Shown: positions 35,521-35,750 of the stretch, one piece after another
Position numbering within the stretch: position 1 is the first letter of the stretch
How the letters are laid out: each line of letters starts with the position of its first letter
DNA from: Polyangiales bacterium
GTDB taxonomy: Bacteria; Myxococcota_A; Polyangia; Polyangiales; Polyangiaceae
DNA length: 64,000 nt
Assembly: GCA_038231275.1 (NCBI GenBank)
Contig: JBBRLQ010000003.1
Coordinates: 108,340-172,339 of the forward strand
Direction: 5' to 3'
Made by a program: the position numbers and the translations under genes
The notes under the pieces: model-generated
The model's database searches: none
Seen by the model: the letters and a program-made list of their open reading frames with translations, nothing else
What the model was told of the DNA's origin: nothing

Positions 35521-35750
35521 CAACACAAAAAGAACGACTCAATCACTTTTTTTATCCACAGGTTGCCCACCGGAATTGTCCACAGGGTTTCCCCCGAAAA
35601 CGCGAAATAGCGCCTGTTTTCTCGCAAATTCGAGCGAGTTTTGAGAGACAGAAATGGCCTACAATTGTTTGATTGATGCAATTGATTGGCATGCCAATTC
35701 AAAACAATCGTGTTTCATTTGCTGTTTGAATGAGTGATTGAGAAATAGTG
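35521..35750. promoter_or_regulatory. AT-rich island (~41% GC by hand count; 35641-35750 about 35%) with clustered repeats and a palindrome
   Basis: I counted 95 G+C in 230 nt by hand. It contains the three 11-mers listed separately, ATTGATT/CAATTG repeats, and the 14-bp perfect palindrome ATTGGCATGCCAAT (35685-35698). Confidence 0.5.
35552..35586 (+). repeat. three same-orientation DnaA-box-like 11-mers: TTATCCACAGG, TTGCCCACCGG, TTGTCCACAGG
   Basis: TTATCCACA (35552-35560) is the E. coli consensus DnaA box. TTGTCCACA (35576-35584) is the high-GC Gram-positive consensus. TTGCCCACC (35563-35571) is a weaker variant. The spacings are 11 and 13 nt. Confidence 0.5.

Follow-up and report, generated by a model that had tools for sequence, protein, structure and literature searches.

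The DNA considered here is a 64,000-nt stretch, hereafter the window, from a Polyangiales bacterium (assembly GCA_038231275.1, contig JBBRLQ010000003.1, positions 108,340 to 172,339 of the forward strand), and the element in question is an AT-rich island at window positions 35521-35750 together with the adjoining tract free of open reading frames (ORFs). The island is interpreted, with a probability of roughly 0.6, as the 5′ control region of a lineage-specific RNA unit of about 2.4 kb, which would carry a cluster of DnaA boxes located outside the replication origin; the transcription starts and the occupancy by DnaA are, in this interpretation, predictions from the DNA. The tract itself is a conserved structured RNA read from the minus strand and, since it is a minus-strand RNA gene, the island constitutes its 5′ flank. 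This RNA gene is previously undescribed and matches no RNA family tested, and the island, as a promoter DnaA-box cluster, belongs to an already known type. An earlier sequence-only reading had proposed for the island a replication-origin module, a DnaA-titrating or regulated site, a relic plasmid or element origin, or a strong regulated promoter for the neighbouring tract; the origin-candidate proposal is an ordinary one and probably wrong.

No credible coding ORF was found between 33011 and 36196 by ORF calling based on the GC content of third codon positions (GC3). This interval is bordered on the left by the stop codon of a gene homologous to the major vault protein (MVP; Shoulder domain, E=2e-32), and on the right by the stop codon of a DAO-type FAD oxidoreductase gene on the minus strand. 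All the relatives used for comparison are metagenomic contigs, and four lineages beyond the window contain homologous DNA. The first (L002, L019, and L018, i.e., the metagenome-assembled genome (MAG) ‘Myxococcales bacterium GL85_DN_concoct_37’ and a 22-kb Logan contig) holds the island and the full RNA. The second (L010, a JGI contig of 2,432 bp) matches window positions 33089-35558 and provides the RNA alone. The third (L014, a JGI contig with an MVP 74% identical) ends in a gene-free tail of 2.1 kb homologous to 33040-35380, and the contigs of the fourth (L011/L012, MVP 86% identical) end in the hairpin found just past the MVP stop codon. Pairwise identity over the tract is 0.88 between the window and L018, 0.88 between the window and L010, 0.92 between L018 and L010, and 0.71 between L014 and the rest. 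For the DAO protein, the window and L002/L018 are 79-80% identical.

The tract has no GC3-supported ORF, its indels measure 1, 5, 7, and 14 nt, and its substitutions lack a 3-nt periodicity (p=0.79 and 0.75), a signal which is very strong in the DAO and MVP coding sequences under the same test (p about 4e-14 and 9e-22). A protein-coding tract is ruled out by these three features; the concatenated translations of the 13 spurious ORFs of the tract, used as a protein query, gave no match. The tract is under selection, because some of its blocks show 96-100% identity between species in which the DNA of the DAO genes is just about 78-81% identical. Two patches, 35316-35420 and part of 34790-34900, are nearly randomised and vary in every lineage, with indels; they are probably peripheral elements resembling expansion segments. 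The helices on either side of the patch 35316-35420 still covary.

The ornate secondary structure of the RNA, whose gene spans 33046-35505 (minus strand) with a covariation-supported core at 33125-35382, was assessed by covariation over four sequences. With three of them, RNAalifold yielded -912.7 kcal/mol versus -669.7 ± 14 for shuffled alignments (12 class-preserving local column shuffles), the pairs with compensatory changes on both sides numbered 111 (49.8 ± 5.9 when shuffled), and the pairs seen only broken numbered 82 (117 ± 10 when shuffled). With all four, 120 of the 771 pairs are two-sided. In the 5′ half, a pair-counting tool found 96.1% of cells paired. Changes on both sides affected 55 pairs there, compared with 18.3 ± 3.4 in shuffled alignments (none of 500 reached the observed 55) and 4-8 in slid controls. 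GNRA tetraloops close many of the helices. Compensatory substitutions, the lack of coding signal, and a defined terminator are thus found together in the same tract.

The gene is read from the minus strand. In 300-nt sliding windows the minus strand gives z-scores from -1.7 to -11.7 throughout, and the plus strand about +0.2 to -2.7 in the interior of the tract and -4 to -6.4 at both ends, the first window favouring the plus strand. Helices predicted without G-U pairs contain 64 G-U cells versus 29 A-C cells. An RNA encoded on the plus strand is ruled out by the z-scores and by these counts. The tract is also G-rich on the minus strand (plus-strand skew -0.084), and its terminator functions in this direction.

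At its 3′ end the RNA gene has tandem intrinsic terminators (33006-33081, minus strand), the first of them formed by GCCGGCCUGG-GUAA-CCAGGUCGGC followed by UUUGGUCAUUU. A 22-nt unit, AAATGACCAAAGCCGACCTGGT, is exactly duplicated at 33006-33027 and 33046-33067, 40 nt apart, and comprises the terminator hairpin, the T-tract, and the MVP stop codon; it is the distal terminator copy that overlaps this stop codon (33009-33011). The hairpin is kept via compensatory changes in L014, L018, and L011/L012. The terminator motif belongs to the RNA module and not to the MVP gene, because L018 keeps AAAATGACCAAAGG without an adjacent MVP.

Searches for known RNAs were negative. Rfam 15 (4,227 families, among them OLE, GOLLD, ROOL, rRNA, RNase P, tmRNA, and group I/II introns) gave no match over the window at the gathering score and, by E-value over 32900-36300, only irrelevant eukaryotic or Pseudomonas models (E about 4); ARAGORN found neither tRNA nor tmRNA in the window. 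The literature searched held nothing pertinent on a large myxobacterial RNA or on a bacterial vault RNA. The sequence-only reading had correctly called the tract ORF-free, but the RNA gene in it went unrecognised.

Regarding the opposite end of the gene, the features follow one another, in the direction of the RNA, as: the AT-rich segment (35750-35600), the conserved words AAAACAGGC and UUUCGGGGGAAA, the DnaA-box-like sites (35586-35552), an A-tract with GTGATTGAGTCGT, TTTTTnTnTTGTG, a spacer of 12-13 nt that differs in all three lineages, a block of 86 nt (35505-35420), and the covarying body. The block 35420-35505 (minus strand) is nearly identical in the window, L010, and L002/L018, with 2-3 substitutions, and contains an invariant 8-bp hairpin, GUUCGCGG...CCGCGAGC. 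It is probably the 5′ end region of the RNA, whose 5′ end would lie anywhere between about 35390 and the AT-rich segment, i.e., up to about 35760. The conserved flank 35506-35551 (minus strand), comprising the A-tract, GTGATTGAGTCGT, TTTTTnTnTTGTG, and the variable spacer, extends from the boxes to this nearly invariant block. A candidate core promoter, TTGTGc and TATCTA separated by 17 nt, is suggested within this flank by a weak match to the consensus; its TATCTA element extends a few bases into the invariant block. A sigma-54 promoter at the TTGCT of the 5′ block was rejected by eye, the spacing to any GG being unfit.

The island is the sole 230-nt stretch of the window with less than 50% GC: 41.3% at 35521-35750 and 35.5% at 35641-35750, in a window of 69.0% GC, which agrees with the 41% and about 35% counted earlier. 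On its left side lie three DnaA-box-like sites, all on the plus strand, head to tail, with start spacings of 11 and then 13 nt. Direct reading bears out exactly the description of three same-orientation 11-mers at 35552-35586 with this spacing, as well as the claim of two perfect consensus boxes, one of the E. coli type (site 1) and another of the high-GC type (site 3). Site 1 is a perfect E. coli-type R-box (9-mer TTATCCACA at 35552-35560; 11-mer TTATCCACAGG at 35552-35562). Site 2 directly abuts it in 11-nt phasing and is weak, with three mismatches to TTATCCACA (9-mer TTGCCCACC at 35563-35571; 11-mer TTGCCCACCGG at 35563-35573). Site 3 corresponds to the high-GC consensus (9-mer TTGTCCACA at 35576-35584; 11-mer TTGTCCACAGG at 35576-35586). 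The trio is unlikely by chance. Counting both strands, only 3 sites in the 64 kb match TTATCCACA with at most one mismatch, versus 1.29 expected, and two of the three fall in the island, on the same strand and 24 nt apart; from that site rate, a same-strand pair within 40 nt is estimated to arise by chance with a probability of about 5e-4. This pair, one box with no mismatch and another with one, encloses the weak box and is intergenic.

The boxes are also conserved. In L002/L018 the three are kept at the same positions and orientation, in exact register with the window, the 9-mers being TTGTCCACA (box 1), TTACCCACT (box 2, two mismatches to TTATCCACA), and TTCTCCACA (box 3), and the corresponding 11-mers TTGTCCACAGG, TTACCCACTGA, and TTCTCCACAGG. 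Boxes 1 and 3 are altered at position 3 alone, and box 2 at that position and at position 9 (C to T), with its core TTnCCCAC retained in L018; the position 3 changes, window/L018, are A/G, G/A, and G/C in the order of the boxes. Position 3 of the DnaA box varies more freely in high-GC bacteria. For comparison, the R-box consensus of E. coli, TTWTNCACA, admits only A or T there (PMC4585315). Around the retained boxes, the 4-5 nt spacer that separates site 2 from site 3 has diverged, as has most of the AT-rich DNA. L010 keeps the TTATCCA of box 1 up to the end of its contig. As judged from the aligned sequences of the two lineages, this pattern of change appears to be that expected under selection on 9-mers of the DnaA type.

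The AT-rich part of the island (35600-35750; minimum 34% GC) behaves in a different manner. Its counterpart in L018 has 47-55% GC and is poorly conserved, short words alone being shared: GATTG, CATTGA, AACAATCnTGTTT, and GATTGA. Among these few conserved words are the hexamers of a candidate rightward promoter on the plus strand, TTGATT (35682-35687) and AATCGT (35706-35711) separated by 18 nt, which was recognised by alignment to L018; the homologous site there, TTGACG-18-AATCAT, was matched by a promoter scan and is directed at a gene of the DJ-1/PfpI family (ThiJ-like) located between the island and DAO in L018/L002 (L018 1614-2474). The boxes lie about 100 nt from this divergent promoter-like site and about 50-80 nt upstream of the invariant 5′ block. 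To the right of the island two further conserved blocks on the plus strand, ACCGGAAAnGT and GGCGTGTATCGGnGAAGTTGAGCGnGCGTGACG (35826-35845 and 35877-35908), are probably the leader of a rightward transcript; in L018 both are found past the island and ahead of the start codon of DJ-1/PfpI. No remnant of the DJ-1 gene was found in the window at 35760-36196, which either lost this gene or never had one. Since leader-like blocks persist without DJ-1, the rightward promoter of the window may drive just a short non-coding transcript or one antisense to DAO. The island is accordingly best described, on sequence grounds, as a putative divergent control region.

The perfect 14-bp palindrome ATTGGCATGCCAAT, to which the sequence-only reading had drawn attention, is indeed present at 35685-35698, inside the candidate rightward promoter, where it covers the last three bases of the -35 hexamer and most of the spacer. 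It did not deserve that weight: the window contains 23 perfect palindromes of 14 bp, and L002/L018 have CGTCGCGAACCGTCGCG in its place, so it is no more than expected by chance and was discarded as a functional site. On the minus strand, 35662-35674 (AATCAAACAATTG) is an exact match, and the only one in the window, to the IHF consensus WATCAANNNNTTR, which is weak evidence; no exact match was found anywhere in the L018 locus, whose homologous position has about two mismatches as read from the alignment. As a side observation, a hairpin CTCGC-AAATTCGA-GCGAG followed by TTTTGAGAG occurs at 35622-35645 on the plus strand, and a terminator scan on the L018 minus strand (equivalent to the window plus strand) found a comparable hairpin with GGATTTTGTC at the matching place. 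Situated after the boxes and before the rightward promoter, this hairpin is possibly a terminator or attenuator acting on the plus strand. Neither parS nor CtrA motifs were seen by eye in the island sequence.

The putative control region, the structured RNA, and the terminator make up a self-contained module, for which the following mechanism is proposed. A minus-strand RNA would be transcribed from about 35505 to 33046 and ended by the terminator that overlaps the MVP-like stop codon. DnaA, present in nearly all bacteria, would bind to the two consensus boxes and cooperatively fill the weak middle one, the phasing by one helical turn being suited to a short DnaA oligomer. Such binding may modulate the weak promoter of the RNA, or hold a small pool of DnaA. 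Further upstream, the AT-rich part would act as a second, divergent promoter, which in one relative may drive the DJ-1/PfpI gene. The idea of a DnaA-titrating or regulated site, already put forward, fits well with the conserved trio, the binding of DnaA being predicted. That of a strong regulated promoter for the ORF-free tract fits well too, as a conserved RNA gene with a predicted start is read away from the island and has the trio just upstream of it.

Several points weigh against this proposal. The conservation of the boxes comes essentially from two independent lineages, since the contribution of L010 is limited to 7 nt of box 1 and the contig of L014 ends before reaching the boxes. Only two boxes are strong, and the B. 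subtilis clusters with stable DnaA binding usually have more. A consensus scan gave no sigma-70-like site for the RNA, and the candidate promoter matches just 3/6 positions per hexamer. It is also possible that the RNA starts further upstream than the boxes, in which case the transcript would contain them. Finally, the preference of the host DnaA for these 9-mers is assumed and its binding predicted, and for Sorangium another predicted DnaA box, TTATCCCCC, has been proposed (PMC2650636).

These points leave some room for an alternative in which the island still controls the giant RNA, but the 11-mers serve another protein binding TTnTCCACAGG or act in the 5′ leader of the RNA. We consider it rather unlikely, although it is the strongest of the rivals. 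The unit conserved in boxes 1 and 3 of both species is 11 nt long, with a CCACAGG tail, and so longer than the 9-mer DnaA box; the transcription start is a predicted one; and myxobacteria encode very many transcription factors. Nevertheless, one of the sites is an exact, universal, high-affinity DnaA box and another matches the high-GC consensus, and the substitutions in boxes 1 and 3 fall at position 3 of the DnaA box, where box 2 has changed too. As for a role in the leader, no conserved base-pairing across the box stretch was seen in our reading of the alignment between the window and L018.

If the sites do belong to DnaA, they could instead form a locus that manages this protein, i.e., a site for its titration or a counterpart of datA or DARS acting on the replication cycle and merely adjacent to the RNA gene. 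In E. coli, three DnaA boxes make up each DARS core, and an IHF site accompanies the boxes of datA (PMC4585315); the exact IHF consensus of the window lies 76 nt from box 3. Likewise, clusters outside oriC restrain initiation in B. subtilis (PMC3245932), and datA, itself adjacent to stable RNA (tRNA) genes, is controlled by read-through from them (PMC10950094). However, the absence of an exact IHF match from L018 speaks against such a locus, as do the presence of three boxes only, in one orientation, and the fact that the whole insert is lineage-specific and missing in relatives, which would be odd for a core element of the cell cycle. This explanation is therefore regarded as improbable.

The lineage-specific character of the module is apparent from the organization of the locus. 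In the window, the island and the RNA are flanked by DAO and MVP. In L018 the DAO/DJ-1 side of the module is retained, and an unrelated gene takes the place of MVP on the terminator side. In L013 (MVP 69% identical), a beta-lactamase gene alone stands between DAO and MVP, and the island and the RNA are absent. In L021 (DAO 69%), two unannotated genes come after DAO, with an order and orientation matching those of L013, and this locus thus appears to share the DAO-beta-lactamase-MVP arrangement. From these arrangements it follows that the RNA and the island are a lineage-specific replacement. The two travel together in the loci compared. Context look-ups of L015, L016, L017, L020, L021, and L022 gave no further copy of the island, and nhmmer gave no extra copy of the tract in the 22 loci and the window. 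It was also observed that six independent short-read contigs (L001, L002, L010, L011, L012, and L014) end at or within the RNA module, namely at the terminator hairpin, 35066, about 35380, 35558, and about 35749, which resembles the assembly breaks seen at rRNA operons. These ends may reflect sequence common to co-occurring relatives, a coverage anomaly, or the drop in GC.

A module that behaves as inserted or replaced at a rearrangement-prone spot might be taken for an integrated plasmid-like or mobile element, with the AT-rich island as its active or relic origin and the RNA as cargo, all the more as an exact 22-nt direct repeat marks the left boundary and short repeats of the ATTGA/TCAAT type occur in the AT-rich part. 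But the copies of that repeat, 40 nt apart, are a duplication of the terminator and do not flank the module, and no att-like flanking repeats were found. The module and its immediate neighbourhood lack any rep, integrase, relaxase, or partition gene, and the module occurs as a single copy per locus examined. The 3.2-kb tract showed no similarity to 72,556 PLSDB plasmids or 50,697 INPHARED phages by BLASTN in distant mode, and two invariant words of the RNA were unmatched in IMG/VR. The relic plasmid or element origin of the sequence-only reading is thus very improbable.

Least credible of all is a chromosomal oriC, in which bidirectional replication would begin at about 35600 through the action of the boxes and an AT-rich unwinding element. 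It draws on a perfect and a near-perfect box beside the lowest-GC stretch of the window, on a minimum of the raw cumulative GC skew near 35000, and on the fact that the predicted oriC of Sorangium is not beside dnaA (PMC2650636). Against this, there are, within ±300 nt, two strong boxes and one weak box in a single orientation; between 35300 and 36000 only TTATCCACA and TTGTCCACA pass at two or fewer mismatches, on one strand. An oriC typically has at least five DnaA boxes, usually in both orientations. The basal unwinding system, moreover, requires three or more DnaA-trios (3′-NAN-5′, consensus GAT) separated from a box by no more than 16 bp (PMC8287927), and no such run was found at that distance on either flank of the boxes: the sequence to the right of box 3 is GGGTTTCCCCCGAAAACGCGAAATAG and that to the left of box 1 (reverse complement) is AAAAAGTGATTGAG, with at most two consecutive NAN in any phase, and the same is true in L018. 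In a per-gene regression over the 64 kb, skew follows gene orientation (-0.113 ± 0.025) and the side of the island has no significant effect (+0.0085 ± 0.021); the sharp local dip is due to the G-richness of the RNA gene. Gene orientation does not flip at the island, most genes being on the plus strand on both sides. A Pfam scan of about 30 GC3-supported ORFs, few being left unscanned, revealed neither dnaA nor dnaN nor any other replication-associated domain, which upholds the earlier remark that dnaA and dnaN are missing from the window. In addition, the AT-richness is weak in L018, and more distant syntenic relatives have a DAO-MVP locus devoid of such an intergenic region (L013 and, apparently, L021). 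With too few boxes, no trios, no replication genes, no corrected change of skew, and absence from syntenic relatives, the replication-origin module is not supported.

Other features of the surroundings are as follows. The rest of the window is typically myxobacterial, with Ser/Thr kinases, a sigma-54 activator, Hsp70/DnaJ, aconitase, and fumarase. Next to the RNA, a conserved gene row (27497-33011, found also in L011 at 569-5765) encodes a multihaem cytochrome c7-like protein of 698 amino acids, an unknown protein of 422 amino acids, and the MVP homologue, with its Shoulder and Vault repeat domains. Such homologues (529 matches, E≤1e-20) are widespread among Myxococcota and were also seen in MAGs labelled Acidobacteriota and Planctomycetes. 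At the start of this row, a ROK-family ORF (26946-28025, minus strand) and the cytochrome ORF (27497-29593, plus strand) overlap on opposite strands by about 530 nt; one or both starts were probably mis-set by the stop-to-stop ORF calling. On the other side of the island, three signalling genes are found at 37434-46028 on the plus strand: a Ser/Thr kinase with AAA_16 and TPR domains (1309 amino acids), a Ser/Thr kinase with a WD40 beta-propeller (1085 amino acids), and an FHA-domain sigma-54 activator (468 amino acids). Their abutting stop and start codons (41363/41364 and 44621/44622) suggest one operon.

The mode of action proposed above has precedents: clusters of DnaA boxes outside oriC control adjacent genes and influence initiation in B. 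subtilis (PMC3245932), and DnaA serves elsewhere as a transcription factor (PMC13438810). Like the six clusters of B. subtilis (yydA, sda, ywlC, and others; PMC3245932) and gidA of Pseudomonas aeruginosa (PMC13438810), the island has consensus boxes in a putative intergenic promoter region, beside the predicted start of a transcription unit, conserved between related species, and away from any origin. In contrast to them, its neighbour is a giant non-coding RNA and not a protein gene, there are three boxes only, DnaA binding is predicted, and the host is an uncultured myxobacterium. With the core of E. coli DARS1 and DARS2 (PMC4585315) it shares the number of three boxes, which here are all co-oriented, and there is no sequence similarity. 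E. coli datA (PMC4585315, PMC10950094) has five boxes instead of three, the IHF match of the island is not conserved, and no homology exists; unlike DARS and datA, this locus is outside the conserved core genome of its clade. With bacterial oriC regions (PMC8287927, PMC2650636) the island has in common tandem, helically phased boxes near the lowest-GC DNA of the region, and it differs from them in the absence of trios, the small number of boxes, and the lack of a skew or orientation switch, of replication genes, and of positional conservation.

In the case of the RNA, the closest counterparts are OLE, GOLLD, and ROOL (PMC12286853, PMC5737381), which are also long, with GNRA-capped hairpins, compensatory changes, no known function, and a narrow range. 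The RNA described here differs from them in that it has no Rfam match, comes from Myxococcota of high GC content, and usually faces an MVP-like gene in convergent orientation. Another difference is size. At about 2.4 kb it is about three times as long as the longest of these three families and, to our knowledge, far larger than any described non-ribosomal structured RNA of bacteria. The comparison with the eukaryotic vault and its RNA is based on the MVP homologue immediately beside the non-coding RNA gene in 3/4 lineages. Vault RNAs, however, are RNA polymerase III transcripts of about 100 nt, whereas this RNA has 2.4 kb; furthermore, the linkage is broken in L018, and the MVP homologues of L013, L015, and L016 have no adjacent RNA. 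MVP adjacency is therefore a lead and not evidence, and the notion that a DnaA-gated, ornate RNA of about 2.4 kb acts together with the vault-protein homologue, e.g., by serving a vault-like particle as its scaffold or cargo, is a long shot.

The interest of these results lies in three aspects. Large ornate bacterial RNAs, such as OLE, GOLLD, and ROOL, have recently been found to form unexpected RNA-only assemblies (PMC12286853), and a much longer RNA from Myxococcota would extend this class. If it were true that DnaA controls the RNA, this would connect a giant non-coding RNA to the initiator of replication, a link that we have not seen described. Lastly, the recurrent adjacency to MVP offers a testable lead on the function of both the RNA and the MVP homologue.

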